Shown here: piece by piece, positions 5,261-59,497 of the stretch
How positions within the stretch are numbered: position 1 is the first letter of the stretch
How the letters are laid out: each line of letters begins with the position of its first letter
NCBI GenBank assembly: GCA_019429125.1
Contig: JAHYJO010000005.1
Span: 1 to 63,862, forward strand
Source: Nanobdellati archaeon
GTDB lineage: Archaea > EX4484-52 > GLR71
Length of the DNA stretch: 63,862 nt
Reading direction: 5' to 3'
Translations under genes and position numbers: made by a program
Notes under the pieces: generated by a model
What the model saw: only the letters and a program-made list of their open reading frames with translations
Told to the model about the DNA's origin: nothing
Databases searched by the model: none

Positions 5261-5592
5261 ATGGATGTTATTTATTTTGTGTTACGTCCTATGATTATGT
5301 CACCCTAGGGATACGTTTAAGTTTTCATAACAAATTATCAACAAAACAAAAAGTTCTTTATACACATCTCAATTAACTATATAAATGTGACCGACTAATA
5401 TATCTTATAGTGAAAAACAACTTTTCCTATGCTTATTTAAGGTGGTTTTAAAAGAAAACAAAGTATTAAAGACAATTCTGGCACAATCTTCGTAAAATGA
5501 TAAGATTTATGCCTTTGCCGAACTTGTTTTTTCAAATACTCCAACAATATTATAATTAGCAAAAGATATTGACTTTTATTGATGTGAAACAG

Positions 5593-43200: not shown

Positions 43201-44041
43201 GAGCGAAATTTTACTTTCTGATTTCCTACCGTTAGGTGCAACAATAAATAACAAGACAGTAACTTATTACAACAACAGCAACAGCCAGACATATAGCCTG
43301 TACAACGACTCCGATTACTTTGTAGGCAACCCCGCACAAGATACTTTACCAGACGGAGTTCAAGTAGATATCTACCACTACAATTTCACCTACAACTACA
43401 CTAACTGGAGCGGTACATTATACGACAATGACAGCATCACTATAATCTATAATGCAAAACTTTTAGGTGGTGGTTCCTGGCTATTGCCGACAATCCTTGG
43501 TGGTTATGACCCCGCATACAAGACTCACATAATAACTGAAATGTACACAGATGTCAACATACCATTATTTGATATTATATTAAAAGTACTGACAAAAACC
43601 GTATCCCTCGGAAACCCAGTAACTGCACTATTGACAATGGAAAATGTAGGAGGACCAAAAGCAAAAGTAGATGTCATGATAAATTATGCAATAAAGACTC
43701 AAGAAGGACAACATATAACTGGAAGCACAGACACTATCGCCATAACAGATAAGAAAGAAACAATCCTTAATCTTGAGCTTCCTAAAGGTGTTAAGGAAGG
43801 CGTATATACGTTTGAGGCACTTGTTACCTATACTGGACGGGAAGCTATATCTACCCGTGATTTTGAAGTCATAGATTATTATAGGCCTGAAAATAATGAT
43901 AACTTAATAACTATAGGTCTCAGTATAATTATCATACTACTCATAATAATATTTATTTGGAACCAGACTTATACTGTCAAAAAGAGAAACATTAATTTAA
44001 AAAATAACAACATGAAACATTTTTATGAGAGACAATCCTAA
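31241..44041 (+). CDS. Giant (4266 aa) membrane-anchored surface glycoprotein/adhesin: Thr/Asn-rich region, DUF2341-like, FG-GAP repeats, Cys-rich modules, LamG-like, Ig-like repeats, C-terminal TM
   Basis: Hydrophobic helices at both termini. WWNTSWRYRVPITV, ADFDNDGDWD/GDFDGDGNMD, LVGWWRFN...ALQFDGSDDYV...FNGTIDEVKIFNRALT, repeated xDTTxP and dense N-x-S/T sequons. Confidence 0.88.
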   Translation: MSFEFNKLKKNNLHVLLLFFLLILILIILIKPYGIYTGNLLASTSTESFRLSPESINLCSIENNIANLSFGPLNQTSIICKNDSYSFSQSSPSSSLPSSSSLSGLSSYLELTFSEISSDNFNITGTDLIFDWYSEVVYDAQIFYQADNGTYEKVCTLKIPNTQSQSICDLSDNIQSISNLHNATVRIYFQEIPITTTISNLITGKVLGVMNNNESQTQTLDNSSNDNISVDNTTIGDEISGDIDTSKSIENNTLNLTDNSTITNITESVNITTDNITADNITIENLTNTTLSLDNITTDNLTTENITNSTIIFDNITTDNVTINNITIDNLTTDNITYTNKTITDNLTDTNTNLSSNHPILDNYTLNISLPSPADNTTTNNTLTDNSSTQNATIHISNIFLNIKYIIYNAITLNMYSDITEYFPNDNVSIYISGDSKIIDKIQLTIDQNDYELKNISENKWKFIWTAPQNSSTKDVKVTVTAYDLKGKRLDAVTLKLSPKNMIATSIPETKKETAVNSTDIKFGARLIYENNSAYKGAQLFFGCNQTDGSYTYLGTNITDDSGWAVLTSDNSSVPEDCFLYVDYRGNTTLHTLPSFNSSLGLPVAIPYKLKDLPTDINIYDSITGELIPYNQYASLKSPKKINLRLADSTGFIFFDSVDLDYINTSKRPSIIKDSKLKQKIEKKTKETVNDLIWVEADDFVPNTTGGKIILPSIGYKTFKCDGTLEDPDCFEIDTCSVSEKPCYEYDNGTTIIYVNHFSGAFNTINWTTDDDWNTGTHVNTTSSAGDLILSGTNTTGYYLSNTTDTTYTIIRIKPIWNSTEQDANKNITVEISADNGTTWLTTTNNTNYTTGAGISTGHELVYRINLSTNDSATSPKVHDITLDYYVIIPNISISLDTDKTTATPNEKITVTGYAVLQPGDTDVVNNIMYLWFDETLISPSEWWNTSWRYRVPITVDTGNYGPIINENIFKRINFRQMLDNQGISEDVDNNSIRVISDTGKEVESNVIFWYTGNEGLVWFYINTTIPTNTEKIYYVYFETTSNPKTPKIYARSPPPDVAVQFQGGSDNGGSGGITRIMGDYNGSFTIYNNDIPNPGANSHDSQCIADFDNDGDWDYVMSKNTDSNIYYYRNNGNGDGFSNFTSMGSIGTRSSTSHFMACATADFNKDGNMDFISFSDTNCCRDLFLGNGDGTFNKTENALANGVYNRDISVGDFDGDGNMDIAIGHYGAYNWYIYYGFGDGNFTAPIYIGNYGGSNADPYAVASGDWNHDGVLDIIVGGAYYGHDGTARKKFQGKTGGQGPSYFTDMGYWTGPNGIDIGDGSRSNVHGWMEGYDWNHDGNDDIIGNIYADNIASQCGIYYWQGTSADWGFENAVKLGVGARCWMGEGGTSPQVGHNLGYYVISPNDLEQILITNNTGFYNYTFIATSVTGTHTLKINTTDENEVYGENSTNITQPSIIISDQQAISIESQTKYILIDEQINISVKVYKNIDNPIDSVWVNITMPNSTVKTYFLDNTTNRTETQIWDVILDTTSEFDNLIGTYNITFYANSTLENGSTIIQQVPTQLINFYIQKLVVFVKNKDGSSVSDANIIVYVHNTTDIVCQGNTTTNGQFDCSAVETSKAYDILYDNIPGRFSQLWKRMVFIPNNTIEFVTPYTYSCSDGSGSNCDVYSDLEVRVYEDLINLKTPGGNLLAIIHTTTSGLSNDTSATNGATITFDKNITSVWDNPVCTDGYYYGWGKEYDYGAEGFIFLFNSQDNIVGCNQKIKITNATGSFESYLLVNIYETTTGFLSCSGHTNSEGTINCGLSSGLYDLKTENGSYALNVSKNSTVTLIAYDSPKTLSDLTIKLTNSTGDALPYIPLNIYENDTGNIVCSVTSNEDGYIICSLDSAKTYDVLNYTNISLPDSYIIDITQYLFEIQTLEYGIPIKDNHIIVKDGSTTKCDGYTDINGMYLCSIQSNNYDIYVGTDNELVENVKFTLSSSESHILEMSPYLLKTEVIATGGGINFSEINVFDHESSNLVCQASDFQGINYTVRCYLANRSIAYDVLYNNTIGTIDHMWKKTVLLPENLTFHESEDYPDYCNLELRIYDKYYTDTMPDGLLLGTVLHGIGKCSDMDIYGFDSTVTSEWNNPVCTGNNFYVWTYSGIGKRSAHYNFSGSVSGCNLDITVKNTYNETLTFASVSVYDKDTQILRCVGNTNSNGLLSCGLPVGNYSIRACFAGYCAYQDISSLGSYSVTIPNIMNTISVVVTDILNEDPLVSDANIIVYVHNTTDIVCQGNTNTNGLYNGQFDCSAVETSKAYDILYDNIPGRFSQLWKRMVFIHNTIEFVTPYTYSCSDGSGSNCDVYSDLEVRVYEDLINLKTPGGNLLAIIHTTTSGLSNDTSATNGATITFDKNITSVWDNPVCTDGYYYGWGKEYDYGAEGFGYMFNSTNDISGCNQSITIINESGSLLNNINVKIYNFITGKLNCEGKTNTNGIIKCGFYSGNYNITTEYGAYILDATISNDYIIQKYNSSTIMETLDVELKDIIGDSISYDKLTFYDAETSIIACQGYPNEQSRLICSLNASKNYTVMVWEGNVSYTLSTHKNIELPDTTSIQENVDLTVLKYTSDKNYIPLSEEIIKLYSGGIYVAQGMSNEQGHIGFALDIAPTYYLNIFDYIGTDAIIAVPLTTTTYVYVSLSPKLNKTDVMSGETILLNGTTIFQPTGDLLPNLNVSVYLNGTLLGNTTTNASGEYAYQITAPTTDGNFTLMVNTTDLNGIYGEYLTNFIVDTSPPNITIISPKNRSYTSSVWFNLSVTDIRGTDWCGYSLDNTANITLSNDTLTNFYDVNSSMTEETHTVIFYCNDTAGKLNYTTEYFNIDLTLPTITLDAPVNNTVITEPPLWINLTMADDLLLDTSWWSNNSGTINYTLNSPWDIDMSEWPEGDNIIHVWVNDSAGNTVQKVYLFILNRYHPEIEFVDPTDNNSGLVNRDWSYINVSASNLGSEDNITVFLDWNNSLVGWWRFNNESGENETYFKDWSSYGNNGSCITTTCPNYTTGYLGKALQFDGSDDYVNAGNDASLNLTNEITIMAWVKPTGTIGSGGYAIISENGNHYTQIRRDNGSGSKIAFWHASAGIWFESNTDVPMNQWSFIVVTFNKYDINQNVKFYLNGVANGTGDTTTALVPTANNIWFGNVYTTSRYFNGTIDEVKIFNRALTPAEINSSYDAGLYRLEKNITNLVDGTYTYTAHVQDLVGDLNQTETRTLTVDTISPIVTLISPEQDDYISSILINFVFKIIDNLNTSMVCSLYINNILITTNSSTNNDTETTFSNITVSENINQNWTVKCSDGVNKNELSIRTFSTDTTSPSIEFISPTKDNNSYISENYTYINWTLTEINPDTILLNWAGTNETMSQNYLNKTGLTDGIYTYYVWVNDTSGTSNQTETRTLTVDTLPPIVTLVSPEQDDYLSSTSMDFIFNVTDNLETYMVCSLYINGTLIKTKSSTNNDSATTFSSITVSENINQNWTVNCSDGVNTAQPSIRTFNIDTTPPYIEFISPTEDNNSYISKNYTYINWSLSEINSDTIFLNWAGINETMSQNYLNKTGLTESIYTYYVWANDTAGNSNQTETRTLTIDTTAPTVTLVSPIDNIYSSATTMDFIFNVTDNLETYMVCSLYINDTLITTNSSTYNATDTTFSSIAVSENINQNWTVNCSDGVNTAQPSIRTFNIDTTPPSISIQSPTPTIYGTLNIDLNYSAQDTNGILSCLYELNGANTTLTSCQNTTITAVEGNNNLKLYAKDTFNNWNMAEVDFTVNLISLQITKYLSPDVLIAGENETITVNTTLKINQTKNDVYSIKITDEVPYDFYNSTVITVYFKNATTAELTELTTNIIINIVDLAQNNNTQIQVNITNISETNLAGYIKENDSIILTYEMTSSQLDSGDTRTMYINVTATDINENQKDAYTTKNISASGAVLRGSKSIYINPANPQDITVTIVVDVIGDAGMSEILLSDFLPLGATINNKTVTYYNNSNSQTYSLYNDSDYFVGNPAQDTLPDGVQVDIYHYNFTYNYTNWSGTLYDNDSITIIYNAKLLGGGSWLLPTILGGYDPAYKTHIITEMYTDVNIPLFDIILKVLTKTVSLGNPVTALLTMENVGGPKAKVDVMINYAIKTQEGQHITGSTDTIAITDKKETILNLELPKGVKEGVYTFEALVTYTGREAISTRDFEVIDYYRPENNDNLITIGLSIIIILLIIIFIWNQTYTVKKRNINLKNNNMKHFYERQS
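35996..36487 (+). repeat. Intragenic duplication, copy A (492 bp)
   Basis: Near-identical to 38018-38518. Confidence 0.9.
38018..38518 (+). repeat. Intragenic duplication, copy B (501 bp)
   Basis: Differs from copy A mainly by a +12 and a -3 in-frame indel. Confidence 0.9.
40961..42385 (+). repeat. 549-bp (183-aa) tandem repeat of paired Ig-like domains, about 2.6 copies
   Basis: QTETRTLT[VI]DT starts at 40961, 41510 and 42059, with long identical DNA stretches between copies. Confidence 0.85.
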
Positions 44042-44286: not shown

Positions 44287-45846
44287 TCATGCAATTTTTT
44301 TATTCTCAGAAGATTTAGTTTCTATTCGCGAATCATAATCCTCAATCAATGACTCTAAAGAGTCATTAGGTACAGAATTGATATCAGGTTTAAGATTAGA
44401 TTTTTTTTCGGTTTCATCAGAAAAATCATTTTGTTCTTGTACACTGATAGTTTTTGAAGCATCATCTTCAAATTCTAAAAAAACATCTTGTTTCTCATAT
44501 ATTTCTTTATCATCTGCTTTTATCTTATCAGTTTGTGTAGTTTTGATACCTTCATCTATCTGAGTTACATTATTCTTTTGTGTTATATCTATTTGATTAT
44601 TTATAGTGTCTTGTGGTATATAATTATCGGTAGAAGTATCAATAACATCATCATTTGCAACCATCTGTTTCTCATTTACAATTGTCTTTTCATTCAGTGT
44701 TGATACAAGATTAATAATATTTTCCATCTGATTCTTATTGTCTCCAAGGACAGCATCTAATTGTTTTTTTATATTCTGCAAATCATTACCTATAACATTT
44801 TCAATATTTTTTTCAATTTCTTTAATTGCATGCACATTATCTTCAGACAGTTCTGTATTCTTTTCAATCTGTGAATTTATATGACTTAAACTTTCTTCTT
44901 TCTTATTGATTTTAGTCTCATTTGCCATTGTTTTTTCAATCAATATAGACATAAGATCTTTAATGTTTAACATTTTTTCTTCAGTCTTATCCACTCTTAA
45001 ACCCAACTCTTTTTTGATTATACCCATATCTTTTTTAGTAATCATATTATCAAATTTAAGTTCAACTGCATCAATTGCACGTATGTTATCTTCAAGAAGT
45101 TCTTTATTGTCTTGTATCATAACATCTATATTATCTAAAGTCTCTTGTTTCTTGTTCAGTTCAAAGAATATCTGTTCAACCTTTGAAGTGGTACGGTTGA
45201 TATAATCTTTTTCATCTTTTATTTTCTTAATCTGTTTATCTATATAAGTAGTAATATTGGTTAAACTTTCAATACTTTTGATATTATCATAGACTTTATT
45301 TATTTTAGTTATCTGTTTCTCAAACGTTGTGTTACGTTCAGTTTCCATGTCAAGTTTGGCTTCAAGTTCAAGTATTTTTTTCTCTTTCCTATCCATATCT
45401 ATTTTGATTCTTTCAGGATTTATCTCCTCAGTTGCATCTTTTATCTTTTCAAACTTAGTAAGTACATCACTAAATGATTTCTCTCTGTCAAATATCATTG
45501 AACGCAATTCGCCAATTTCTTCTGTAAGTTTTGATATCTCTTCATTCTTATCTTTTTCAATGCTATCAATCATCTCAAGTTTTCCTTCAATCTTATCAGT
45601 CTTGATTGTCATTTCATCTATTGTTCTCTTGACTTTATCGATTTCAGTATCTTCTTTAGGATTATATGCTGTTACAATGTTATCATTTGTTTTTTTGGTA
45701 TTGTTGCCTTTGCTGACTAATTTATCAAATATGCCAGATACGGATTTCTTTTTCTCTTTATTTTCAAGATTATCAAAATCACCGACACTAATTACATTCT
45801 CAGATTCTTCAATGTCTTTTATGTCATCTTTCGTATCTTCAGCCAT
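44287..45846 (-). CDS. Long coiled-coil protein (519 aa) with acidic termini, downstream of the ATPase-fused giant protein
   Basis: Heptad-rich K/E/I/L sequence (EISKLTEEIGELRSMI) with no transmembrane segment. 29-nt gap from the upstream gene. Confidence 0.8.
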   Translation of the reverse strand: MAEDTKDDIKDIEESENVISVGDFDNLENKEKKKSVSGIFDKLVSKGNNTKKTNDNIVTAYNPKEDTEIDKVKRTIDEMTIKTDKIEGKLEMIDSIEKDKNEEISKLTEEIGELRSMIFDREKSFSDVLTKFEKIKDATEEINPERIKIDMDRKEKKILELEAKLDMETERNTTFEKQITKINKVYDNIKSIESLTNITTYIDKQIKKIKDEKDYINRTTSKVEQIFFELNKKQETLDNIDVMIQDNKELLEDNIRAIDAVELKFDNMITKKDMGIIKKELGLRVDKTEEKMLNIKDLMSILIEKTMANETKINKKEESLSHINSQIEKNTELSEDNVHAIKEIEKNIENVIGNDLQNIKKQLDAVLGDNKNQMENIINLVSTLNEKTIVNEKQMVANDDVIDTSTDNYIPQDTINNQIDITQKNNVTQIDEGIKTTQTDKIKADDKEIYEKQDVFLEFEDDASKTISVQEQNDFSDETEKKSNLKPDINSVPNDSLESLIEDYDSRIETKSSENKKIA

Positions 45847-45875
45847 GTTATCTACCCTTTATTATTTTTGTACCT

Positions 45876-48800
45876 TTATGGTTTATATCTTTTCAGATGT
45901 TCCATAAGTGATGAGATGTATATCTCAGCAATCCTGAACCGTCCCTGTTTGAGTTTGTTCTTTGCAAGTTTGAGTTCAAGTTCAAAGTCACCAGTATTTA
46001 TATTTTTATTTTTGAGTCCCTCAATCATTGACTCAATCTTTTCAAGTTTCTCAGAAAAGTCCTTATATTTATCAAGATCTTCATTAAGAATTTTATGTGG
46101 TGAATGCCATGTAGGCCTAAATGATATGAACCATGGCTTACCATTATTGTATTTAGGATTCTGTATCATCCCGACTCCTATTCCTTGCCTTGAAATCCTA
46201 TTTGCGAAGTCAAGACCATATTTATTTTTCCATTTTTCGATATCACTCAATGATTTTGTATTGAGCTGGATTTCAGTAAGTACATTACCACTTATAGCTT
46301 CCTTGAAATCTGATGATACTTGTGATATCATAATAAGTCCGATACCCCATTTCCTGAATTCACGACATGCTTTCTCAACTTCTGTATATCCACCGCTACC
46401 ACCATATTTTTCAAGTAGCCGATGTACCTCGTCAAGAACGATAATCATCTTAAGTTCAGTTGATTCTTCCCATGTCTGTGCAAATAATGTCTTTATGATA
46501 GACCTTATTGCGATGTCATACTCCCCAGTCTTTAATTTATTAAGTGTAAATACAGTGATTTCACCTGGATTCATATATTTCTTGAAATCTACCTGTATAT
46601 TAGGGTCTGTGACCTCTTCAATTACACCTTTATATGACCTCCTGTATCGGGGGTCCATACCAAATTGGGAGTATCTGTTAAGTATAAAGTCATCTTTACA
46701 CGGTTTCATAAACCCAGTCCATTGAACTGTGGGGTCAAAGACAACGACAGGTATATTATGTTCAAGTGCCTCTTCAACAATGACTGACGCTGCTACACTT
46801 TTACCAGATCCAGTAGACCCTGCAACCAAAAGATGCGTTGTCAGATCTTTAGGATTGAAATATGATTTCCTGTCAGTTTCTGAAATTTTACCCACACAAA
46901 ATGAATCATTGGTTTTACCGGGAAGAAGTGAGTAATTGACAGGCTGTATATACCTTTCATTCCTGTGCTTGTATCTTATATATCTTATCCGACCATAGTA
47001 GCCGACAACAAGAAGCGATAATATTATAATGCTCCATTTGACGCGGTTACCCATCGTAGTCTCCCAGAAAGTCAGCACAACCTCAAAAGTATCAACTGAT
47101 GATTTTTGTGTAATTGTCGTATCTCCATAGGTAGCAAGAACTTCAAGATAATATTCCCCAAGACCAACAGTATTGATGTCTGCAAGTGATAGTGTCTTTC
47201 TTAATGTTATAGACTCAGTCAAGAAGATAGTTTCATTGACAACCTTAATTATTTCTTCAGTCTTTGAATTCTTAACAATATAATCTAAGGTGACATTAAA
47301 TCCTTTATTTTTAGCAAGGTTTGAGAATATTATATTGAATTTTATATCCTCATAAGGTCTAATTTTTTTAGTAATCAGTTGAATCTTAATATCCATCTCT
47401 TGCAACATGCTTGAAGTCGATGTAATCTTGAGTGCTACAGGAACTCGTGTAGTCTGGTTGATTGAATCAAATATCAATGTACCATAATAAGTTCCAGGGA
47501 CAGCTGTGTCTTCTGCAGATACATATAAATTTACAATCCTGTTTTCAGATGCTTTAAGTTCAAGAGTTACCTTTGAGAAATTTATATAGTCAATGATTTC
47601 ACCTAAAACTGAGATATTGACAAGTTGTGAAGTATTAAGCAGATTCTGTATAGATAAATTATATGTTTTATTTTCTCCAGGAGTTAAAAATATGTTACCA
47701 ATATTACTGTCAACCGAGAAGAATTCAGTAATGCTCTTACAATCAATTGGGCAATTTACAGAATTTTCACCTGTCTCACATACATCATTACCACAGACAC
47801 TTCTTGCAGGACTACTTCCACCGCCTGAGGAACTAGGACTTGGAGGGTCAGCAATATACCCACACGTTGTCCCACGACACCATTCAGCGATTGCATATGC
47901 AGATGTGCTCGTAATATTGAAAGTTATTGTATTTAGTTTAGTATCAAGTGCAACATTACCATACTTAACAAAATCAGTGGCACAAGATCTTGTTGTCATG
48001 TTCCACTCTGAACATTTGTAAATTCTTAGGTAATCTTCAGAAATTGTATGACCAATATCCAGCAACCCTTGTGTATAGTTCAATGTAATTTCAGCAGATG
48101 TATAATTAATATATGGGATATAAATTCCCAGTGCAAGCAAAGGATCCTGTCCTGCATCAGGTGCAGTGGTCGGCAAAGTTATCTGTCCTATGTCAAGTGA
48201 ATCATTAAGTGTCACAAGATCCAACTTAAACACATCTGTAACATTTGTTGCGTTGCTGTCATTATGCTGGTTCTGCATAATTGTGCTGATATTGACATCT
48301 CGTAATTTAATGCTGTGCTTTGCATCCCACAAGTTATAGATTTTAATATCATATATCCTCTTATGTATGTCCCATTTATATGTTCCATTGACGCCTACAC
48401 TAAAATCATGTATTGCCCAGTCAGTCCCATTTTTGTATAACTGGAAATCACCAGTGATAAAATCATCGTTTGTATCTTTTAGTACTCCTGAAAATTCAAG
48501 GTCTGTATATACATCAAAATAACCTGTAGTTTCATTCACAGTGCTTGAGACAAGACCATGAGCACTATCATTTGCAGATATGTCTATCTTGTAGTCGCCA
48601 ATTTGGTTAGTTGTTATAAGGTCAAATGTCCAGATGTCATCTGAAACCAAAGTCAGACTATATGGCATTACACTTGCATCTGGATAAGTGACATTGGCCA
48701 AAACCTGTGATATGCCCGTATTGTCTGTGACATTAACAAGCACATTAATAAGATTTATATTATCATTCCAGTCAATATTCCCCTCACTGTCGCTGACATT

Positions 48801-51800
48801 TAAAGTGATAGAATTAATAGTTGGTGGCATGATATCATCATACTTAACTGCATTTGCCTGTTCTGCAGTAAATATCATCATAGTGCTGTTGTCAATTGCA
48901 TAATATCCAGTAACTTTAAGTGTATTGTTAATCTTATTGCCGTCAATTAAAGGTGCATTACACTGTAGTTCATAATCATATGTTGTGCCGACATAAGGGA
49001 AATTAAATATTGTGGCGCCCTCATATAAGCAAGGTAATCCACTGACATTGATGCTCCAATTAATCTTATTGGAATCAGTAATTTTCATATAATTATATTC
49101 TGCATCCACATATATTGTAATGTTATGAGAGCTATTGACAGGACCTGCCTGTAGGCTTTCAGTTGGGTATGTAATGTCAATACTTAATGCGCTCACATCT
49201 AAAGATAATACTTCATTAACAAATTCGGGAACAAGAGTAGTATCATTGCTTGTAATTGTAATATTTATATCATGTTTACCTAATGATGCCTCAGACACAT
49301 TATAATATATATCAAGAATTCCTGTAAAGTTGGCAGGTATAGTGTAATTATCCTCTGATATAATTTGCGAAACAGTACCATTTATTGTAATATTTGTAGT
49401 GATATAACTGCTTCCGTTTCCAGTGATATTGATGATAAATGTAAAATTATGGTTTAGCATATTAAAGATCGTTACAGGTTTAAATTTCCCAATTTCTGTA
49501 GGCCCACCTTTACCTGCCACAACATCATAGTCTTCTACAACAACTTTCCAATCAACATCCTTAATTGTTATGTTGATAAGTATCATGTCTGAACAGAAAT
49601 CATAATCCCCCATGCATAATGACTCTGTATCATTTGCAATGATATATGTCCAGTAATTACCCATTAGACTTTTGTTTTCAGGAACCGTTATGTTCACAGT
49701 TATAGTTAAATTATCATAAAAATCAATATCAAAATTATTTCCACTGTAATTCAACCAGTCATTTATAATTGATGAATTTCCACCGGTAGTATTAAGTGAT
49801 ATGTTGTATAAGGGTGTATTTCCAAATGCAGATATTGTAACGTTACCAAGAGTTTTGATATCGCCATATGAGATTTCAGAAGAATCAATCTGCACATCTA
49901 TAATTTTTAGATAGGTAGTATGTAATACATCAATTACAATACTTTCATTTGAAAAATCAGTATTATTATTATCCCATATCAATGTGAAATTGAGTGTATT
50001 ATTACCAAGGGTTGCATACTGTGTAATATTAATAATTATGTTCGTTGTGCAATTCCCAGAGGGTGTTATGCTTTTGCATTTATTTGATGCTGTCACAAAT
50101 CCAGTCTTTTCAAAAAACAGGATTGTAGGATTAAACATATCAAAATCACCTGTGTTATTTATCAACACACTTATATTGAGTGTAGCATTCCAATCATGAG
50201 TTATATTTTTAGCAGATAAATATGATGAATTAATTCTGAGTTGACCTGAAGTCTTGTCATCTGAAAAACTGACATTGACTGTATCAGACCAGTTTTGGCT
50301 AATATTATAGTATAAATCCGGTACATCACTTATGTTACACACAATAGGATGGCTTCCAATTATGCTTGTAGAATCTACCCAGGTGTATGTGGCAATGCCG
50401 TCATAATTTGTATTTGTTGTACCAAGGAATGTCAGATTGTCATAGAAACCGACTGAATAATTAAATATACTAGTTGATATGTTTGCATCACTGACATTAC
50501 ATGTTATATTCACAGTTGAGTCTAGAAAACATCTAAGCCCATCTTCAGAACAACTCGAAGATGAAACTGTTATATCTGAAATCTGACTAAAGCCAAAGAT
50601 ATTTACATTAACATATTCCTTATCAAGTACATAGTAAGGTCCAGTTGCATAAGCAATAATCTTTTGTGATCCTACACTATGATTCATAAATGAGGTCCAA
50701 GTAGTATTGCCACTTCCTGCAGACGTTTTAGTATCATAATCAACCGATATGTCTGAACTGACAATGGAATTGATGCAAGTTCCATTTATGTCAGAGATGC
50801 AGATGTAATCAATATCTATGTCTGTGGATTCTCCATTTCCCTCGTCCACAATGGTTATGTTAATATTTGTAGAACCATTAATCTGCGCATCATTGCATAT
50901 CTTTGTCTTCCAACTAATATCTTCCAATTCAGTAAAATTATTAAGATCACAAATATAATCTCCAATAATTAATGATACATTAGCATATTCAGATTGATAT
51001 CTAAAACTTTGCCTGTACCGTATTTTTACATATTCACTAAGTATAGGTTCAAAAAGCGTCTGTGACACATTTTTTGTATTACTTAATGCTGAAATAGATA
51101 GTACACTAATATTGCCAACATAGGTGGCAGTACCATCACCTGTCCAATACTCAGTGCTATTATTTGAAAAGTCATTGTTTCTGATAAACGATAATTTATA
51201 CTCAACATAGGGATTTGGATTTTGTTCATCCAAATATAACATATAACTCTGGCTTTCATTAGCGCTCATATTAATCAGGAAAACAATTTCAGAATAACTA
51301 TTCATATATTTCTGGCCAATGCTTATGTTCTGTATCTGGATAGGCACATTGATTTCAGTATCCTGATCAATATAATTAAGTCTTGTAGAATTAATTTTCC
51401 ATGAACTTACATTAACATCATAACTCTCAAGGTCAGATGCTTTAATTATGACTGGTCTGTCTGTAATATTTCTACTAGATATTTCAGTAATATTTAATGC
51501 AATGACTTTGTTGACTGTATACCAGTTAATAGCATATGTATTTTGTTCCTGTGTATCGCATCCATCAGTCGCGCTACTATTCAGTTTAATCTCATCGCCT
51601 TTATAGAATTGCTGATTGTCTGAAGGTGTGTATATAGTAATTGCAATATTATCGGTCAACCTTACATCATAATCATCATTATAGTCTAAAGTGTAATTGA
51701 AAGGTACTATATTATTGATTGTCACATTTACTCCATAATCACCAAGAGTTATATATGAACAATCCGGGTTCCAGTTATAAGTACACAATCCATTAGTATT

Positions 51801-54800
51801 TACAGAACTTGACCCAATTTCAGTGTTATTGAAATACCAAGTGCAAGTATAATTGGTTGTATTAATTGTTGTAGCAGTCACATCTATGTTATATTCATCA
51901 GTTAGTTGTGCACTAAATGTTATAGTTGTATCTCTCAATATACTTTCATTGCTGTAGGGTGCCACAACGCCTATACTGACATTACCTTTGACATTGACAG
52001 TATAATTGGTAGTATTTAGCAGATTATAATATTTTGAGTCAATTGATACATTCCAAATCTGACCACCGACAGAATAATTACTGTTCAGATCAAAATTAGA
52101 ACTGCAATAACCTGTACTGTTTACATTATTCATATTATATAATGTCTTATTAATTCCATCTTTACTGACATATACTGCGCAACTGATACCATCTATATTT
52201 ACAGGGACACCAACTGTGGTATCATTAAATATCACTTCAATTCGTGTTGAATCATTTTCTCTGTATACAATAGAATCATTTCCAAACACACTGGATACAG
52301 TGACATTATGTTTTACAATTACTGGTCCTGAATAGTCACTTGTATTTTTCTTACTGTGTATTTTATATCCTGTTGAATTAAAATCAAAATATTCAAACTT
52401 GTATGAATTTGCGGCCAAAACCCACTCTTTAGTTGACTCTATATTGTTAAATTCAACCAGACCCTCACCATTAACAGTTATCGTGCCTTTATCAGTCCAA
52501 CTATCATTTATTGTCACCCACAATGTAACATTGACAGAGTCTCCATCGCTGTCGTTGACATATATGGAATAATTGAATAGGTCTCCCCAGATTCCAGATT
52601 CAGCAGTCACATTTGCATCTGTCATATTCGTTTCAAGATTAAGTGCTGCCTTGACTATATATCTTGTAGATGTGCCTGCAGTAATATTTGGTTGTATCCA
52701 TTTAACAAAGTCATAGATACCATTATCATTTGTATCATTTTTACATGCCGAAAACCCAAGCGCCAACGAAGTGTCCATAGTGGGGCAAGCCGTTGCCGGT
52801 GTAATATCAAACTCAGTCTGCCCCCATATGACACTTATTTTTATATCTCCATGAACTTCAGGGTCACTATCATCTATTGTAGCATTTGCAGTTATAGCTG
52901 TAAATAAGCTAGAGCTATATATTATTTCATTTCTAATTGTTACATTTTTGATAGCATCAAAATTATCAGTATAATATGTCTTTAAAACACCAGACTCATT
53001 TATAGTTATTGGTATCTCAAATCTCATACGATTATCCCAGAGAACTTTAGATATTGTTTCCTGCGCATCCACATCAAAAGTTTTAGACGTGATATCACAA
53101 TAATTGTAATCTTTTATTGTAACATTTACATATTCCTCATCAAAACCGCAGATTGTGGCAGTATCATTAATTTTTATGTATCTGACAATCATCCTTATAG
53201 TAGGGTTATCAAATGTGATATTTTTTCCTTGCGATACTATAGATTCATTTACGGAGATGCTATCTGTCCGTGACCAGTAATCTATTATCTCATAATCAAT
53301 AAAATTAGATGCATTATAATCGTAGCTGATATTTATTGAAGACAAATTAAGGTATCCTCTAGACTCATTATTTAATGCATATATCTTTGATGGTATATTA
53401 CAAAGATCTGTTGCGCAAGTACTATCAATATAAGTGTTAAAGTTATTACTGATATTTGCATTAACATCATCTAATTTTTCAGTTGACCTAAGCCGTCCAT
53501 CACCTGTAGTATAGTTCCAATCATATTTGTCATCAGAATTTATGTCAATAGTAACATTAGTTGGGAAACTGTCGTAGTTTAGTACATATAAGTATCCACT
53601 ACTGGTACTTCCAACAACATCATATATGTTTGTACCATTACTTGATATCACAATTCCGTGTGTAACTGAACTTACAACCCAATCCGTTAAATATTCGAGT
53701 ATGATATCTCCCGTAGAATTTAATACATATATGTACTTATTATCTGCGCCGATAATGATTTCATTTCCATCATATATATCACTAAATTCTCCAATATCTA
53801 CAGATAATATTTGTGTATCTCCATGGATTGTAAAATTCCAAAGTTCATCAAGAGTAGAATTTAATATATAAAGGGTTGAATTTTGAGTAGCAACCGCAAT
53901 TTCATATCCAAAGTCCTCATTAATATCACCAATTGCAATGTCCCAAACATTACTATCTTTGGTCCAATTATCTATTTCAGAACCGGTTTTGTTTAGCACA
54001 TATATTTTTCCGCTATAAGTAGCTACGACGATTTCCATATCTGTATCTTGATTAATGTCTGCGATTTCAAGCGCATTAATACTACTGTCTGCTGAAAAAG
54101 TCCATACAACATCTTTACTTGAATTTATAAGGTAAACGGATGGGTCTGTATCAGCACTACCGAAAACAATTTCATTTCCTACATCAGATATAATATCTCC
54201 TATGGCTACACTTTTACCTGTTCCTGGTGGGCTAAATGTCCATAGCAAAGAACCAGTATTATTATAAAGCATCATACCTGAACCTTCTTCTGCTGTAATG
54301 ATTTCATTTCCGGGGTCTGATGTAAAATCACCTGTTATTATATCGTGTCGATTATAGTTGGGTATTGTTGCAGGCATATCCCATATCAGTATATTTGTGG
54401 AACTTATAAGTCTTAAATTATTAACTGTGTTGTGGAGTCCTAAAATCATTTCATTTCCAGGATAATTTGGGTCTATGTCATCAATCACGACCGCTAATAT
54501 CTCTAAACCCGTATAATAAATAATTGGATATATCTGCCCAGTAATATCTATCGTTGATGAAGTCACATTTGCCGTTTTAGGTAAACTTATCTCAAAAGTA
54601 ACATAATTATTTAAATCAAACAAGAACAATTCACTATAAGCAGTATCATTCAATTGATTCTGTTCATAACTCAAAACAGGATTATCAAGATCTAATTCAA
54701 AAGTTTTCTGGTTTGTAAATGCATTATTGTATGCTTGTGCCTTATTACCAAAGACAAATTCAATTGTATGTTTTCCAGTAGACCATACATCACTTATGAG

Positions 54801-55193
54801 TTTACCTTCTCCATAATTCCAATAAGTACTTATAGAATCATCTGTCATCCCAGATAGAAGTTTTACCCAATTATTTTGATTATCTATATTATTGTCCTTA
54901 TAATACATAGAATTAAATGAGACTTCACCAGGATTAAAATTATCAATTTGTAAAAGACCAGTGCCTGTAGTATTAAATAATACTATCCAAGTACCACCAA
55001 CTTCCGGTGTAGAATATTGATTTATAATGTCTATTGTCTGAATCTCGTAAGGCTGACTATAATGGTAGGGTGTTGGACTATTTATTGCTACGCTCCCAGT
55101 AGTGAATCCTATCATAATGAGTGCAATGATAAATACTATAGCTAATATGAGGTGTGTAGTCCTTTTCGTAATGTTGCTATTTGAAATATCCAT
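45876..55193 (-). CDS. Giant (3105 aa) surface protein with TM helix and C-terminal cytoplasmic HerA/FtsK-type (DUF87-like) ATPase
   Basis: N-terminal signal, FG-GAP repeats (AIGDIxxDxGxEI), Ig-like array, CGNDVCETGENSVNCPIDC and TM WSIIILSLLVVGYYG. The ATPase follows: HLLVAGSTGSGKS, VVVFDP, IIVLDEVHR, REFRKWGIGLIMISQ. Confidence 0.9.
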   Translation of the reverse strand: MDISNSNITKRTTHLILAIVFIIALIMIGFTTGSVAINSPTPYHYSQPYEIQTIDIINQYSTPEVGGTWIVLFNTTGTGLLQIDNFNPGEVSFNSMYYKDNNIDNQNNWVKLLSGMTDDSISTYWNYGEGKLISDVWSTGKHTIEFVFGNKAQAYNNAFTNQKTFELDLDNPVLSYEQNQLNDTAYSELFLFDLNNYVTFEISLPKTANVTSSTIDITGQIYPIIYYTGLEILAVVIDDIDPNYPGNEMILGLHNTVNNLRLISSTNILIWDMPATIPNYNRHDIITGDFTSDPGNEIITAEEGSGMMLYNNTGSLLWTFSPPGTGKSVAIGDIISDVGNEIVFGSADTDPSVYLINSSKDVVWTFSADSSINALEIADINQDTDMEIVVATYSGKIYVLNKTGSEIDNWTKDSNVWDIAIGDINEDFGYEIAVATQNSTLYILNSTLDELWNFTIHGDTQILSVDIGEFSDIYDGNEIIIGADNKYIYVLNSTGDIILEYLTDWVVSSVTHGIVISSNGTNIYDVVGSTSSGYLYVLNYDSFPTNVTIDINSDDKYDWNYTTGDGRLRSTEKLDDVNANISNNFNTYIDSTCATDLCNIPSKIYALNNESRGYLNLSSINISYDYNASNFIDYEIIDYWSRTDSISVNESIVSQGKNITFDNPTIRMIVRYIKINDTATICGFDEEYVNVTIKDYNYCDITSKTFDVDAQETISKVLWDNRMRFEIPITINESGVLKTYYTDNFDAIKNVTIRNEIIYSSSLFTAITANATIDDSDPEVHGDIKISVIWGQTEFDITPATACPTMDTSLALGFSACKNDTNDNGIYDFVKWIQPNITAGTSTRYIVKAALNLETNMTDANVTAESGIWGDLFNYSIYVNDSDGDSVNVTLWVTINDSWTDKGTITVNGEGLVEFNNIESTKEWVLAANSYKFEYFDFNSTGYKIHSKKNTSDYSGPVIVKHNVTVSSVFGNDSIVYRENDSTRIEVIFNDTTVGVPVNIDGISCAVYVSKDGINKTLYNMNNVNSTGYCSSNFDLNSNYSVGGQIWNVSIDSKYYNLLNTTNYTVNVKGNVSIGVVAPYSNESILRDTTITFSAQLTDEYNIDVTATTINTTNYTCTWYFNNTEIGSSSVNTNGLCTYNWNPDCSYITLGDYGVNVTINNIVPFNYTLDYNDDYDVRLTDNIAITIYTPSDNQQFYKGDEIKLNSSATDGCDTQEQNTYAINWYTVNKVIALNITEISSRNITDRPVIIKASDLESYDVNVSSWKINSTRLNYIDQDTEINVPIQIQNISIGQKYMNSYSEIVFLINMSANESQSYMLYLDEQNPNPYVEYKLSFIRNNDFSNNSTEYWTGDGTATYVGNISVLSISALSNTKNVSQTLFEPILSEYVKIRYRQSFRYQSEYANVSLIIGDYICDLNNFTELEDISWKTKICNDAQINGSTNINITIVDEGNGESTDIDIDYICISDINGTCINSIVSSDISVDYDTKTSAGSGNTTWTSFMNHSVGSQKIIAYATGPYYVLDKEYVNVNIFGFSQISDITVSSSSCSEDGLRCFLDSTVNITCNVSDANISTSIFNYSVGFYDNLTFLGTTNTNYDGIATYTWVDSTSIIGSHPIVCNISDVPDLYYNISQNWSDTVNVSFSDDKTSGQLRINSSYLSAKNITHDWNATLNISVLINNTGDFDMFNPTILFFEKTGFVTASNKCKSITPSGNCTTNIIINITQYATLGNNTLNFTLIWDNNNTDFSNESIVIDVLHTTYLKIIDVQIDSSEISYGDIKTLGNVTISAFGNTPLYNISLNTTGGNSSIINDWLNYSGNNFDIDFYDNLTITVNITVPENKSLMGNYWTYIIANDTESLCMGDYDFCSDMILINITIKDVDWKVVVEDYDVVAGKGGPTEIGKFKPVTIFNMLNHNFTFIINITGNGSSYITTNITINGTVSQIISEDNYTIPANFTGILDIYYNVSEASLGKHDINITITSNDTTLVPEFVNEVLSLDVSALSIDITYPTESLQAGPVNSSHNITIYVDAEYNYMKITDSNKINWSINVSGLPCLYEGATIFNFPYVGTTYDYELQCNAPLIDGNKINNTLKVTGYYAIDNSTMMIFTAEQANAVKYDDIMPPTINSITLNVSDSEGNIDWNDNINLINVLVNVTDNTGISQVLANVTYPDASVMPYSLTLVSDDIWTFDLITTNQIGDYKIDISANDSAHGLVSSTVNETTGYFDVYTDLEFSGVLKDTNDDFITGDFQLYKNGTDWAIHDFSVGVNGTYKWDIHKRIYDIKIYNLWDAKHSIKLRDVNISTIMQNQHNDSNATNVTDVFKLDLVTLNDSLDIGQITLPTTAPDAGQDPLLALGIYIPYINYTSAEITLNYTQGLLDIGHTISEDYLRIYKCSEWNMTTRSCATDFVKYGNVALDTKLNTITFNITSTSAYAIAEWCRGTTCGYIADPPSPSSSGGGSSPARSVCGNDVCETGENSVNCPIDCKSITEFFSVDSNIGNIFLTPGENKTYNLSIQNLLNTSQLVNISVLGEIIDYINFSKVTLELKASENRIVNLYVSAEDTAVPGTYYGTLIFDSINQTTRVPVALKITSTSSMLQEMDIKIQLITKKIRPYEDIKFNIIFSNLAKNKGFNVTLDYIVKNSKTEEIIKVVNETIFLTESITLRKTLSLADINTVGLGEYYLEVLATYGDTTITQKSSVDTFEVVLTFWETTMGNRVKWSIIILSLLVVGYYGRIRYIRYKHRNERYIQPVNYSLLPGKTNDSFCVGKISETDRKSYFNPKDLTTHLLVAGSTGSGKSVAASVIVEEALEHNIPVVVFDPTVQWTGFMKPCKDDFILNRYSQFGMDPRYRRSYKGVIEEVTDPNIQVDFKKYMNPGEITVFTLNKLKTGEYDIAIRSIIKTLFAQTWEESTELKMIIVLDEVHRLLEKYGGSGGYTEVEKACREFRKWGIGLIMISQVSSDFKEAISGNVLTEIQLNTKSLSDIEKWKNKYGLDFANRISRQGIGVGMIQNPKYNNGKPWFISFRPTWHSPHKILNEDLDKYKDFSEKLEKIESMIEGLKNKNINTGDFELELKLAKNKLKQGRFRIAEIYISSLMEHLKRYKP

Positions 55194-55504
55194 AGAATCT
55201 CACATAAGAATCATAATCAATAATATAGTATACTTTATTAGTACTTATTCGCGATGTTTATATTTATTCAAGATGTATATATATAGATTGTATATGTCTA
55301 TCAACTTAAAAGCCATTATCCTATCAAATTTACATCAATTTTTTTAGGATTCATATGAATCTATATTAATGTCATCTGCACAAATATTCCTATCAATAAC
55401 TAGTATATATAAAAACCAGTAATAATTGTTAGTATGATTGGTAGCAAAACACATCTGTCTTATATAAGGCGAGTTGCAGAAAAATATAGTATGTGGGTTT
55501 ATCT

Positions 55505-58500: not shown

Positions 58501-58735
58501 TTCTGGAGTCCATACAATTTTTGTACAGGTATATTCTAAAGACCGGCTTATAGGGGAAGATTCAGAGACGTTCACTGTATCGGTAGATTACGATAAAAAT
58601 AGTTATTCAATAAATAGCTATACTCTTTCAATTCTAGTTATTTTGATAATGTCTTTAATCTTGTTACGGATTTATAAGAAAAGAGGGTTCAATGATAGTC
58701 TTAATGCTCTTAAGAGAAGATTAGATACAGTTTGA
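55505..58735 (+). CDS. Large secreted, C-terminally anchored protein (1080 aa), paralog of 59498-62824
   Basis: Signal peptide, DVLQYLKLNLS, FSRGP, FDW, LPTIYE, a Gly/Pro linker, and a C-terminal TM with basic tail. Confidence 0.82.
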   Translation: MKNKIVNNNLVVLFIVLCTLYLSFNSAFALIENPTAYINEEVTYYYNTDGSVSYFIPPVGNVEVEVSNTHDVLQYLKLNLSNAELAYTNILSNTAYASVAASTSIGAKTRMLLNTDNGPKDVSYKITNSNIVPVIGLTFNYQNVDGGSDLSAGKTNTLRFNIFIDSTKDLNDVTLYFKIPININGSNDAANLYSPSVADGTITVYDSDGDKIDDSLVWRGNLTVAGLNLYVYADTTPGINFDDASYSLDLMCTSCVYAINYGPTFTGLSFSNLFSRGPINNGIYIMFQNETYVRGFMKNIARGLNYAVDGWKLYNISNFDTPIISDSTPFILYPNDMYNTDFYKVTNASEKYFTVAFDWGIIWNPSVYTGTTRSFIDLPTIYEGDISLGKSSTHSLSDNNVSVVVAGTYVGNENLEIRSVSINSIIPHQSEGGIVHVWDVIDWSDIVVYHINSSGNKTQIVVTEDMVVLQIPNATDDGFMYLNIDNISQKTGYYLTLNNDIQITYNLSTTPLDTQNIFSFNTTVIAKTLSGTPILRTIVENVTLYGEGIVSEPPSGGGSPGGAGGSPPPPERVIELVKAAVKLNLIDSNTADISGTYKLIDPEDIGINDMVILLDIPEDALIFNPQSIEIMRYDSKLGYWVDFDDKNIILEKDYAYVSGKVFFQININNYGVKGSGPILKDDDLLKISYVLTLPYGSYDLVLRAQIPVTTTSTQSGLKETDIHIPIRITNDVGLAESLIITESQFEVENIYVGISPVWTKTIEVHNPNAYSMSHTFDIEILPDFLNVNLTTAGTPIINSIKNVDGNLTVGWKETFKQNETKTYILNITTAPVIRTLENYTVLEATEENVRMLATVRLTNPSGTDYGNVTFLYIGDLDIIDVSDSDGNTLDFIVTDEATTIIVPLIKNNSSEYILIKYYDYSDVLVVSLDKLVYTPGDTKYNILYVPSRDEKTISISVEVLGSASSKAFTTTYADVIILENISRHNEVNIFDTLKFSPLSSGVHTIFVQVYSKDRLIGEDSETFTVSVDYDKNSYSINSYTLSILVILIMSLILLRIYKKRGFNDSLNALKRRLDTV

Positions 58736-59385: not shown

Positions 59386-59497
59386 GATAACCTGTGGTAT
59401 TTATATAGTAGGAATGATAAAATAAAAATGTCAATAGTATTAAGCATTAATATTAATGTTATTTGCTTTTAATAATTGTTGTTTGCAGGTGATCGAT

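Follow-up and report, generated by a model that had tools for sequence, protein, structure and literature searches.

A SPEARE-type giant surface protein carrying a HerA-like ATPase in a DPANN-type archaeon

In the window, meaning the whole stretch of 63,862 nucleotides of archaeal DNA that was analysed, one gene appears to join a giant adhesin-like surface protein to an ATPase of the HerA/FtsK superfamily. This raises the questions of whether such a fusion is genuine, whether it belongs to a protein family already described and what a motor would be doing beneath an ectodomain of this size. DPANN archaea rely on touching other cells directly, and their genomes are tiny. Even so, a considerable part of their coding capacity goes into giants of the SPEARE type and, to our knowledge, nobody has shown what is moved by the SPEARE motor.

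Layout of the protein and recurrence of the fusion

The giant gene is read without internal stops over 3,105 aa, and from the N to the C terminus the protein consists of a Sec-type signal anchor, an ectodomain of ~2,680 aa rich in N-glycosylation sequons, one transmembrane (TM) helix, a HerA-like ATPase and a three-helix tail. The features are positioned as follows:

45876..55193, minus strand: giant gene, 3,105 aa, probable SPEARE-type surface protein with a cytoplasmic HerA-like ATPase (uninterrupted reading frame)
55080..55166, minus strand: N-terminal signal anchor or signal peptide, aa ~10-38 (Kyte-Doolittle maximum 3.09)
53895..54332, minus strand: distal FG-GAP/beta-propeller-like repeats, at least four GD..D.GNEI units, aa 288-433 (repeat motifs at aa 288, 332, 378 and 422)
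47739..47795, minus strand: Cys-rich knot CGNDVCETGENSVNCPIDC, aa 2467-2485, after a P/S/G linker (motif regular expression and family alignment)
47079..47729, minus strand: two juxtamembrane all-beta (Ig-like) domains, aa ~2489-2705 (AlphaFold2 cassette model)
46986..47042, minus strand: single TM helix, aa 2718-2736, then RIRYIRYKHRNER (hydrophobicity, alignment of relatives, AlphaFold2)
46089..46913, minus strand: HerA-like RecA-fold ATPase core, aa ~2761-3035
46797..46820, minus strand: Walker A GSTGSGKS, aa 2792-2799 (sequence, alignment, regular expression)
46428..46445, minus strand: Walker B IIVLDE, continuing as VHRLL, aa 2917-2922 (sequence, alignment, regular expression)
46344..46364, minus strand: REFRKWG, candidate arginine finger, aa 2944-2950, followed by ISQ
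46320-46328, minus strand: ISQ, aa 2956-2958
45891..46085, minus strand: C-terminal three-helix tail, aa ~3037-3101 (AlphaFold2, pLDDT ~95)

The first-pass annotation had described a giant ectodomain linked through one TM helix to a HerA/FtsK-superfamily ATPase, and this is what the gene encodes, as a single polypeptide with intact catalytic motifs and a cytoplasmic ATPase. The Walker A, Walker B, REFRKWG and ISQ motifs, the TM helix and the helical tail all lie where it had placed them, and only its overall range has to be corrected: 45876-47050 is not a multiple of three, and the in-frame piece is 45879-47051.

That two genes were joined by assembly or gene calling, or that the contig is chimeric, was a concern raised in the first-pass annotation, and we give such an artefact practically no chance. 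Nothing was found in its favour, and against it the C-terminal end lies on a single reading frame in all 79 related loci, which come from independent assemblies. A near-identical protein of 3,104 aa is known from another assembly (P0003, ATPase 94% identical), the spacing from TM to Walker A is constant across the family, and a second copy of the cassette with the same layout (at least 8,146 aa) is found elsewhere in the same 1.16-Mb genome. One locus (L004) matches the whole giant protein with 75.7% identity over 3,105 aa in BLASTP. The same fusion recurs in 213 large proteins (3,471 candidates, 1,707-5,434 aa) and at no fewer than 555 places in species-representative genomes. In its own phylum it is found in 27 of the 42 genomes, 8 of the 10 high-quality ones among them, and in 9 of 13 genera. 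Matching cluster representatives numbered 1,318 at E<=1e-3 and 352 under the stricter E<=1e-30, with total lengths of 353-7,878 aa, and the ATPases of the 120 listed relatives (own protein excluded) are 55-94% identical. An N-terminal methionine followed by a hydrophobic segment starts 140 of 236 relatives, the remainder being mostly 5'-truncated. An antisense frame (45868-46725, plus strand) was considered as a gene and dropped, as it matches 48 loci only by shadowing the conserved ATPase frame.

The TM helix is only moderately hydrophobic. The hydrophobic segment WSIIILSLLVVGYY (aa 2720-2733, window positions 46995-47036) gives Kyte-Doolittle values of 1.96 in a 15-residue span and 1.63 in a 17-residue span, under the threshold used in the scans, and the helix holds the most hydrophobic 15-mer of the protein downstream of the signal anchor. 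The stronger TM segments of relatives align at this place: of the 236 family proteins that extend far enough upstream, 233 have a TM 25-110 aa before Walker A. In the AlphaFold2 models the TM of the giant protein is a single unbroken helix (residues 2-31 of the C-terminal-piece model, pLDDT 86-97; cassette residues 273-306). N-x-S/T sequons number 142 in aa 36-2719, 2.6-fold above the 55.5 +/- 6.3 of shuffled sequences (none of 1000 shuffles reached 142), and 2 in aa 2737-3105, where 2.4 are expected; across the family the median density is 5.15 per 100 aa outside and 0 inside. Five K/R residues stand among the 20 residues C-terminal of the TM. The sequon distribution and this basic cluster therefore argue for an ectodomain outside and an ATPase inside the cell, which is the orientation that the first-pass architecture requires.

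Relation to the SPEARE family

Proteins of this design have already been printed. Hamm et al. 2019 (PMC6642349) described a protein that lies largely outside the cytoplasm, with a TM towards its C terminus and a conserved domain on the cytoplasmic side, the P-loop ATPase region of which was named 'type III restriction enzyme', and found similar cytoplasmic sequences in Aenigmarchaeota and other DPANN. Every protein of their set had at least one laminin-G (LamG) domain, and peptides of the N. antarcticus protein were detected by mass spectrometry; therefore one or more members of the family are indeed produced. In the description of Reva et al. 2023 (PMC10266531), a signal peptide is followed by Ig and beta-propeller domains and a TM, and the cytosolic part holds a 'VirB4/TraG-like' ATPase with a coiled-coil tip; a second VirB4-like ATPase is encoded directly downstream in SVXNc and BNXNv.

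The likeness between these proteins and the giant protein is extensive as far as the accessible text of both papers goes. Shared are the signal sequence with a huge extracytoplasmic part behind it, beta-propeller and Ig-like domains, the single TM near the C terminus, the cytoplasmic P-loop ATPase with its helical tip, the cytoplasmic part as the most conserved one and the several copies per small genome. There are also differences. The giant protein is shorter than the SPEARE giants described in the available text (5,998-9,409 aa), and, in contrast to the set of Hamm et al., Pfam finds no LamG domain in it (E<=0.1). A LamG domain is present in the neighbouring 4,266-aa protein (E 1e-28), and the ectodomain could still hold a divergent one, because Pfam recognises little of it. 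As ectodomains are the variable part of these proteins, we regard LamG as descriptive of SPEARE and not as defining it. Unlike the nanohaloarchaeal SPEARE, the present protein comes from a low-GC organism (~33%) and its cytoplasmic domain is not acidic in composition, and hence the organism is probably not a salt-in halophile.

It is very likely that the giant gene belongs to the SPEARE family, the giant membrane-anchored extracellular proteins of DPANN-type archaea. The link rests on architecture, on the similar cytoplasmic sequences that Hamm et al. noted in Aenigmarchaeota and further DPANN groups and on relatives from MAGs with Nanohalobium or Nanohaloarchaea in the title, not on alignment to NAR1_1133, AQV86_04780 or SVXNc_0300. 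Identity is 55% and 51% to two loci titled Candidatus Nanohalobium sp. (L066 and L080) and 54% to P0139, the cluster of which includes a member named Candidatus Nanohaloarchaea archaeon; for relatives in Nanohalobium- or Nanohaloarchaea-titled MAGs, identities of 87-94% are found in L005/L004. Judged by title and the start of the abstract, no printed description of the family was found beyond the SPEARE papers, and the clusters of the ten relatives contain none of the accessions cited by Hamm et al.

The architecture is thus genuine and widespread, and the novelty that the first-pass annotation implied is lost to these two papers. What is added here is the HerA affinity, a larger conserved cassette, a coiled-coil partner and the divergence of the distal tip. 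The conserved unit exceeds the ATPase and comprises two Ig-like domains, TM, ATPase and tail. AlphaFold2 places the beta domains at cassette residues ~53-151 and ~162-266 (pLDDT mostly 80-88), and this juxtamembrane region can be aligned in 23 family members, some only 580-790 aa long. Relatives also carry PF10633. The Cys-knot expression matches many relatives at an equal relative position, and the knot is also aligned in the family alignment. In the distal part, weak Pfam matches to FG-GAP and the BBS7 beta-propeller cover aa 327-400, and according to precomputed annotation relatives carry PQQ/beta-propeller families. Compared with the closest relative, P0003, the ectodomain is 73% and the cytoplasmic part 95% identical, with the fastest divergence in the distal part (56-65% identity over aa 1-600). 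Judging by these sequences, the motor has changed far more slowly than the distal tip.

Affinity of the ATPase

HerA is the translocase of the archaeal HerA-NurA DNA-end resection system and is also known from bacterial defence systems, and the arginine of its R-motif acts in trans. In profile as well as fold comparisons the ATPase of the giant protein matches HerA better than it matches VirB4, TrwB or FtsK. Pfam DUF87 (PF01935, the HerA central domain) matches aa 2766-2822 with E 7.4e-12 and 46.3 bits against a cut-off of 23.2 (50.4 bits in a second scoring), the best PDB sequence matches are HerA proteins, and HerA structures also come first by fold. Shared with HerA are the RecA-fold core, Walker A, Walker B and an (E/R)xxRK(Y/W)G...SQ motif, with REFRKWG aligning to KEGRKYGIG...SQ of the solved HerA 8wiv. 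Unlike HerA, the giant protein is membrane-anchored, fused to an ectodomain and devoid of the HAS-barrel N-domain, because TM and Walker A are only ~55 residues apart. The NCBIfam HerA models are far from their cut-offs (HerA_Thermprot 37.8 bits versus 800, helicase_HerA 22.6 versus 970), and separate canonical DUF87/HerA-type proteins are encoded in the genome, one of 659 aa and another in a 502-aa open frame. On sequence grounds the domain is therefore best classed as a HerA-like core and not as a HerA orthologue.

The catalytic residues are nearly invariant. In the family alignment G, T, G, G and K of Walker A do not vary (of 244 family proteins, 238 fit the expression), in DEVHRLL the E, H, R and L are likewise invariant with D conserved in at least 90% (236 of 244), and so are R, E, R and G of REFRKWG (238 of 244). 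The motor is under strong purifying selection. Such strict conservation of the catalytic set indicates that hydrolysis matters and does not indicate its purpose. The tail, modelled as helices at residues 323-348, 354-368 and 372-387 of the C-terminal piece (AlphaFold2), keeps the pattern ...LEL.LA..KLK.G.F.M.EIY..SL in relatives.

Both printed names of the ATPase can be traced to weak Pfam matches of this region, to ResIII (E 2.1e-4) on the one hand and to AAA_10 and TrwB on the other. The HerA-like scores of the present domain differ from either name, and the motor is neither a restriction enzyme nor a bona fide VirB4. This bears on the model of Reva et al. (PMC10266531), in which the giant protein is a T4SS-like 'straw', a secretion channel through which a VirB4/TraG-like ATPase drives effectors into the host. 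In the giant protein HerA outscores VirB4 in every comparison, the AAA_10 and TrwB_AAD_bind matches stay under the Pfam cut-offs, as does FtsK, and the VirB4 N-terminal domain (PF03135) is found neither in the protein nor anywhere in the 93.5%-complete genome.

Among membrane-bound motors, the crenarchaeal DNA-import (Ced) proteins CedB and CedD (PMC11868833) resemble the giant protein in being HerA-clade ATPases held at the membrane by their own TM helix, and differ from it in that they lack an ectodomain and carry a VirB4-NTD-like domain on the cytoplasmic side. Among the NCBIfam models CedD matches the ATPase best (E 5.2e-15), with 55.1 bits versus a cut-off of 600 and over the Walker A region only; CedB reaches 28.9 bits versus 700. 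No CedA-type channel gene was seen beside the cassette. TrwB/VirD4 and FtsK/SpoIIIE differ in having at least two TM helices per chain and no large ectodomain.

The coiled-coil partner and the work of the motor

Downstream of the giant gene follows one further feature:

44287..45846, minus strand: partner gene, 519 aa, cytoplasmic coiled-coil protein (29 nt past the stop of the giant gene)

This differs from SVXNc and BNXNv, where the published text at hand (PMC10266531) has a second VirB4-like ATPase in that place, and no mention of a coiled-coil partner was found in the available parts of the SPEARE literature (PMC6642349, PMC10266531). Of the 78 loci with room for it, 69 have a same-strand homologue downstream, in 55 cases within 400 nt, and the other 9 lack one; clustering of neighbours places the partner at 70 loci. 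The second cassette gene of the genome has its own partner copy (E 4e-17). No TM-like segment or Pfam family was found in the 519-aa partner, and its conserved core spans aa ~80-290. In the PDB profile search every match was a coiled coil of designed or generic type (best E 2.1e-5), and a Pfam scan of 28 partner members only coiled-coil-type families, each in at most 13 members. Identification as a PspA/ESCRT-III-like or Rad50-like protein was dropped after zero matches. When the ATPase (residues 36-391) and the partner core (residues 60-300) were modelled as a complex, both runs scored 0.00, which counts neither way.

The only other frequent downstream neighbours in the 79 loci are a short paralogue (14) and a convergent surface protein (12), and no conserved polytopic membrane gene was found there. 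With one TM helix per chain, and with the recognisable parts of the ectodomain being adhesin-like (beta-propeller repeats and Ig-like domains), this speaks against the straw of Reva et al., which we find improbable for this protein, and the conduit that the first-pass annotation had envisaged finds no positive support in it.

We lean, with modest confidence in the whole, towards a SPEARE protein whose ATPase would assemble into a ring beneath the membrane, like HerA, TrwB and FtsK in their solved structures. Since the fold matches to these proteins are mostly hexamers, oligomerisation into a ring or stalk is a reasonable inference, and the ring would bundle six ectodomains at one site. Six single TM helices in a ring offer no obvious pore. 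The ATPase is presumably active, given the near-invariant catalytic residues, and tail and/or ring may work with the coiled-coil partner. The fast-evolving distal tip would bind the surface of a host or partner cell, and the conserved ring would perform ATP-driven work at the contact site. By analogy with the DNA-handling HerA, FtsK, TrwB and CedB/CedD, DNA or nucleoprotein is a speculative first guess for its substrate.

The protein could also be an adhesin only, with an ATPase serving clustering, tension or retraction, signalling or turnover of the ectodomain and the coiled-coil protein acting as a cytoplasmic scaffold, so that nothing is moved between cells. The ectodomain does resemble a host-recognition adhesin in its divergence gradient and glycosylation sequons, the TM is single with no channel gene, the partner is a generic coiled coil without an enzymatic domain, and ATPase-less neighbours of ~300 aa appear to keep a similar C-terminal helix (a weak match, E 0.002-0.003). 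As the characterised relatives of the ATPase fold are polymer translocases, we nevertheless judge it rather unlikely. It differs from the ring-forming motor favoured above in the substrate question alone.

A bolder extension of the favoured reading, and a long shot in our estimation, is that the cassette (Cys knot, two Ig-like domains, TM, HerA-like ring and tail) and its partner make up a minimal trans-envelope machine that has gone unrecognised in DPANN and certain other archaea, in which a ring under the host contact, with six interchangeable adhesin arms, would pull DNA or another polymer across. If true, it would be an archaeal counterpart of the Ced/T4SS coupling motors made from one polypeptide and one scaffold protein, and it could explain how genome-reduced symbionts are supplied with nucleic acids from their hosts. 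The HerA-like motor, the conserved unit from the Ig-like domains to the tail and the near-constant coiled-coil companion sharpen the experiments on the role of the motor. The cassette is also present on a 1.9-Mb contig of a MAG titled Hydrothermarchaeum (L040), and therefore it may not be tied to a symbiotic lifestyle. In the window, four surface-protein genes and the partner gene (31241-62824) take up about half of the 63.9 kb.

Topology and extent of the conserved unit

The giant gene (45876-55193, - strand) is a single open frame of 3,105 codons, and the TM-like segment, the named motifs and the helical tail were each found where the first-pass annotation had put them:

46995-47036, - strand: TM-like segment (aa 2720-2733)
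46797-46820, - strand: Walker A, GSTGSGKS
46428-46445, - strand: Walker B, IIVLDE
46344-46364, - strand: REFRKWG
46320-46328, - strand: ISQ

The topology assumed at that stage, with the big part extracellular and the ATPase cytoplasmic, was also borne out. The ectodomain (aa 36-2719) carries 142 N-x-S/T sequons against 55.5 +/- 6.3 in shuffles of the same residues, a count matched by 0 of 1000 shuffles, whereas the part after the TM has 2 against 2.4 expected. Five K/R lie within the 20 residues after the TM. In the giant protein this segment is only moderately hydrophobic (Kyte-Doolittle 1.96 over 15 residues, 1.63 over 17) and scored below the hydrophobicity thresholds applied in this analysis; it is the protein's most hydrophobic 15-mer, signal anchor aside, lines up in the alignment with clear TM segments of relatives, and is modelled by AlphaFold2 as one long helix. 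Because of the sequon contrast, the positive residues and the aligned and modelled helix, the large part is placed outside and the ATPase inside.

Short family members (580-790 aa) align to the giant protein from about aa 2440 on, sharing the order P/S/G linker, Cys knot (CGNDVCETGENSVNCPIDC, aa 2467-2485, missing in some aligned members), two all-beta domains, TM, a conserved RY..P.....LP linker, ATPase and tail. In the model of this 666-residue cassette (pLDDT 84.9), two domains are beta-sandwiches, a helix of 34 residues and the ATPase follow, and three helices end the chain; the conserved unit as aligned and modelled is larger than the range originally annotated. The variable part is everything distal of the cassette. 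Compared with the closest relative, the cytoplasmic part is 95% identical, the juxtamembrane part 77% and the ectodomain 73%, falling to 56-65% over aa 1-600, the site of FG-GAP-like propeller repeats. Strong purifying selection with intact motifs is shown for the cytoplasmic part, and rapid change for the tip; such a gradient would be expected of an arm for host recognition mounted on a conserved engine.

The family was searched in four ways with the last 391 residues of the giant protein (P0002). There were 213 matches among 3,471 candidate proteins of 1,707-5,434 aa; the 120 matches listed, the window's own protein excluded, are 55-94% identical, and most of those listed come from MAGs named Aenigmatarchaeota. 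When 1.84 billion cluster representatives were searched without a word index, 1,318 proteins matched at E<=1e-3, 352 of them at E<=1e-30; the proteins are 353-7,878 aa long, and almost all are matched at their C terminus or close to it. Among 244 family proteins, Walker A is kept in 238, Walker B in 236 and the R-motif in 238, and a TM-like segment lies 25-110 residues ahead of Walker A in 233 of the 236 that extend far enough upstream; ectodomain length ranges from 51 to 7,488 aa (median 1,824). At least 555 places were confirmed in species-representative genomes, and 79 loci were kept. At E<=1e-30 the cassette is found in 27 of 42 genomes of the window's own phylum grouping, where it occurs in 8/10 high-quality genomes and 9/13 genera. 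The fusion of ATPase and ectodomain is real and not an artefact, since it recurs across independent proteins, including a 3,104-aa protein of another assembly that is 94% identical in the P0002 region.

The same genome has a second cassette gene (G000:C16, about 1-24442, + strand; also L002, L083 and L084) with a 50% identical ATPase, which forms the end of an open frame of 8,146 codons or more; judging by match position the frame must extend to about the contig start, and the protein may be longer still. The cassette was also detected at 53-61% identity in records not labelled DPANN, namely L040 (a 1.9-Mb contig titled Candidatus Hydrothermarchaeum profundi), L082 (titled Halobacteria archaeon) and L032 (titled Heimdallarchaeota), where MAG labels or binning could be in error. 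Correct labels would mean that the family extends beyond ultra-small symbionts.

The ATPase and the SPEARE family

Pfam assigns aa 2766-2822 to DUF87, the HerA central domain (E 7.4e-12, over the cut-off), with sub-threshold matches to HerA_C, AAA_10, ResIII, FtsK_SpoIIIE and TrwB_AAD_bind. An AlphaFold2 model of the cytoplasmic part from a 31-sequence alignment (pLDDT 92.7, pTM 0.90) had Sulfolobus solfataricus HerA (4d2i) as its top Foldseek match (E 1e-12), followed by defence-system HerAs, then TcpA, the viral packaging ATPase B204 and FtsK (figures: DndH C-domain 24.7, T. pseudethanolicus VirB4 23.7, TrwB 19.8, R388 VirB4 19.0, FtsK 18.3). At E<=1e-3 the PDB sequence search returned HerA-type proteins and no others, and NCBIfam ranked CedD (E 5e-15), HerA, CedB and TraC in that order, all far under their equivalog cut-offs. 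These rankings indicate a HerA-clade core. An orthologue of HerA itself was rejected because the HAS-barrel is missing and the TM lies just some 55 residues ahead of Walker A, and VirB4 because profile searches found no PF03135 match in either the giant protein or its genome. Canonical soluble DUF87/HerA-type ATPases are encoded apart in the same genome and are only distant relatives of the cassette ATPase (pairwise E 8e-13); the first has a long N-terminal part ahead of Walker A and a C-terminal extension:

G000:C17:30531-32510, + strand: DUF87/HerA-type ATPase, 659 aa
G000:C13:12276-12887, + strand: DUF87/HerA-type ATPase, in a 502-aa open frame

The novelty implied by the first-pass annotation did not hold, as the design is already in print; its interpretation is supported in part, for the fusion, motifs and topology, on the evidence of the reading frame, sequons and relatives. 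The excerpts of Hamm et al. 2019 (PMC6642349) deal with proteins of nanohaloarchaea that reach 8,553 aa, the N. antarcticus one having been detected by mass spectrometry; the region most conserved in them is cytoplasmic and was read as a type III restriction enzyme, with similar sequences in Woesearchaeota, Aenigmarchaeota, Micrarchaeota and Altiarchaeales. The excerpted re-annotation of this SPEARE family by Reva et al. 2023 (PMC10266531) gives a Sec signal peptide, an Ig-like domain, PQQ-type beta-propellers and more Ig/fibronectin-like domains, then a TM, a cytosolic 'VirB4/TraG-like ATPase' and a coiled-coil tip, and reports neither protease nor endonuclease. Both printed names can be traced to weak ResIII (E 2.1e-4), AAA_10 and TrwB matches on the same P-loop region. 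Beyond these papers the literature search yielded nothing more specific. The giant protein's ATPase is 55% and 51% identical to loci titled Nanohalobium sp., 94% (L004) and 87% (L005) to loci titled Nanohaloarchaea archaeon, and 54% to a 7,878-aa protein whose cluster has a member named Nanohaloarchaea archaeon. The giant protein, set beside the named SPEARE proteins by their descriptions, is a further member of a family that is known but uncharacterised.

A coiled-coil companion and possible working

The cassette is usually followed by a coiled-coil partner gene, represented in the window by a 519-aa gene with no TM-like segment and no Pfam family:

44287-45846, - strand: partner gene, 29 nt past the giant gene's stop

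One of the 79 related loci, whose sequence ends too soon after the cassette gene and which gave no match, was set aside. A same-strand downstream homologue is present in 69 of the 78 loci with room, starting within 400 nt in 55 and 0.8-4.3 kb off in 14; the other nine have no homologue. Independent clustering placed the partner in 70 loci (69 of them same-strand), with a median offset of 18 nt. Its conserved core (aa ~80-290) is matched in PDB and Pfam by generic coiled coils, and the genome's second cassette gene has its own copy (E 4e-17).

Where the partner is 2 kb off, a short cassette paralogue (625-700 aa) intervenes. Tandem short paralogues of 551-1,393 aa separate giant gene and partner in L029, L038, L050, L066, L069, L080, L014 and L027, in agreement with the small 'SPEARE' versions and the 'second ATPase' described in the excerpts of Hamm 2019 (PMC6642349) and Reva 2023 (PMC10266531), respectively. 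At about 0.9 kb, the gap is filled in 4/6 loci by a signal-peptide protein of ~300 aa and no ATPase:

L024:11133-12143, L036:6488-7438, L044:7687-8646, L068:11130-12047: signal-peptide proteins of ~300-340 aa between cassette gene and partner

Their C-terminal helix is weakly like the cassette tail (pairwise E only 0.002-0.003, two loci compared), which is no more than a lead. Should the likeness be real, docking of the partner would fall to the tail and not to the ATPase.

Most of the solved HerA, TrwB and FtsK structures that the fold search matched are hexamers, so by analogy the cytoplasmic ATPases would form a ring under the membrane, bundling six arms. From the context, the distal tip would bind the surface of another cell, and ring and partner would do ATP-driven work at the contact. 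Nucleic acid as the substrate is speculative, a guess by analogy with HerA, FtsK, TrwB and CedB/CedD (as excerpted, PMC11868833). Reva et al. 2023 (PMC10266531, excerpted) proposed a type-IV-secretion-like 'straw', but such a conduit looks less likely, as six single TM helices form no evident pore and the cassette is not accompanied by a channel gene: across the 79 related loci we found no conserved polytopic membrane protein and no other frequent gene downstream. A serious rival reading is a pure adhesin, in which the ATPase would serve clustering, tension or turnover.

Genomic surroundings

The window is archaeal, coding for ribosomal proteins S19e and L31e, eIF-6 and an intein-bearing gyrase B, with a low G+C of about 0.28-0.41, and its genome (1.16 Mb, 32 contigs) is 93.5% complete. 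Its other features are:

3439-4689, + strand: IrrE/M78-peptidase-domain protein
4691-5260, + strand: DUF4411 protein, after a 1-nt gap
5569-7974, + strand: gyrase B with intein (Intein_splicing, aa 453-597)
7995-10817, + strand: gyrase A, after gyrase B
29390-30073, - strand: DDE_Tnp_1 transposase piece, covering profile positions 81-198 of 200 only
31241-44041, + strand: 4,266-aa surface protein, convergent with the partner gene
55493-58735, + strand: 1,080-aa surface protein, divergent from the giant gene
59456-62824, + strand: 1,122-aa surface protein, divergent from the giant gene

The first two look like a two-gene regulatory or toxin-antitoxin-type module, and the transposase piece, just upstream of the surface-protein block, is probably a truncated IS remnant. 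The 4,266-aa protein has a signal anchor, a C-terminal TM, 202 sequons, FG-GAP_3 repeats, LamG (E 1e-28) and Big_13, and no ATPase; a neighbour of this type is also convergent in the 87%-identical relative L005. The 1,080- and 1,122-aa proteins match no Pfam family, each has a signal peptide and a C-terminal TM anchor, and relatives occur in 14 and 20 related loci, respectively. Surface-protein genes occupy 31241-62824, about half of the window.
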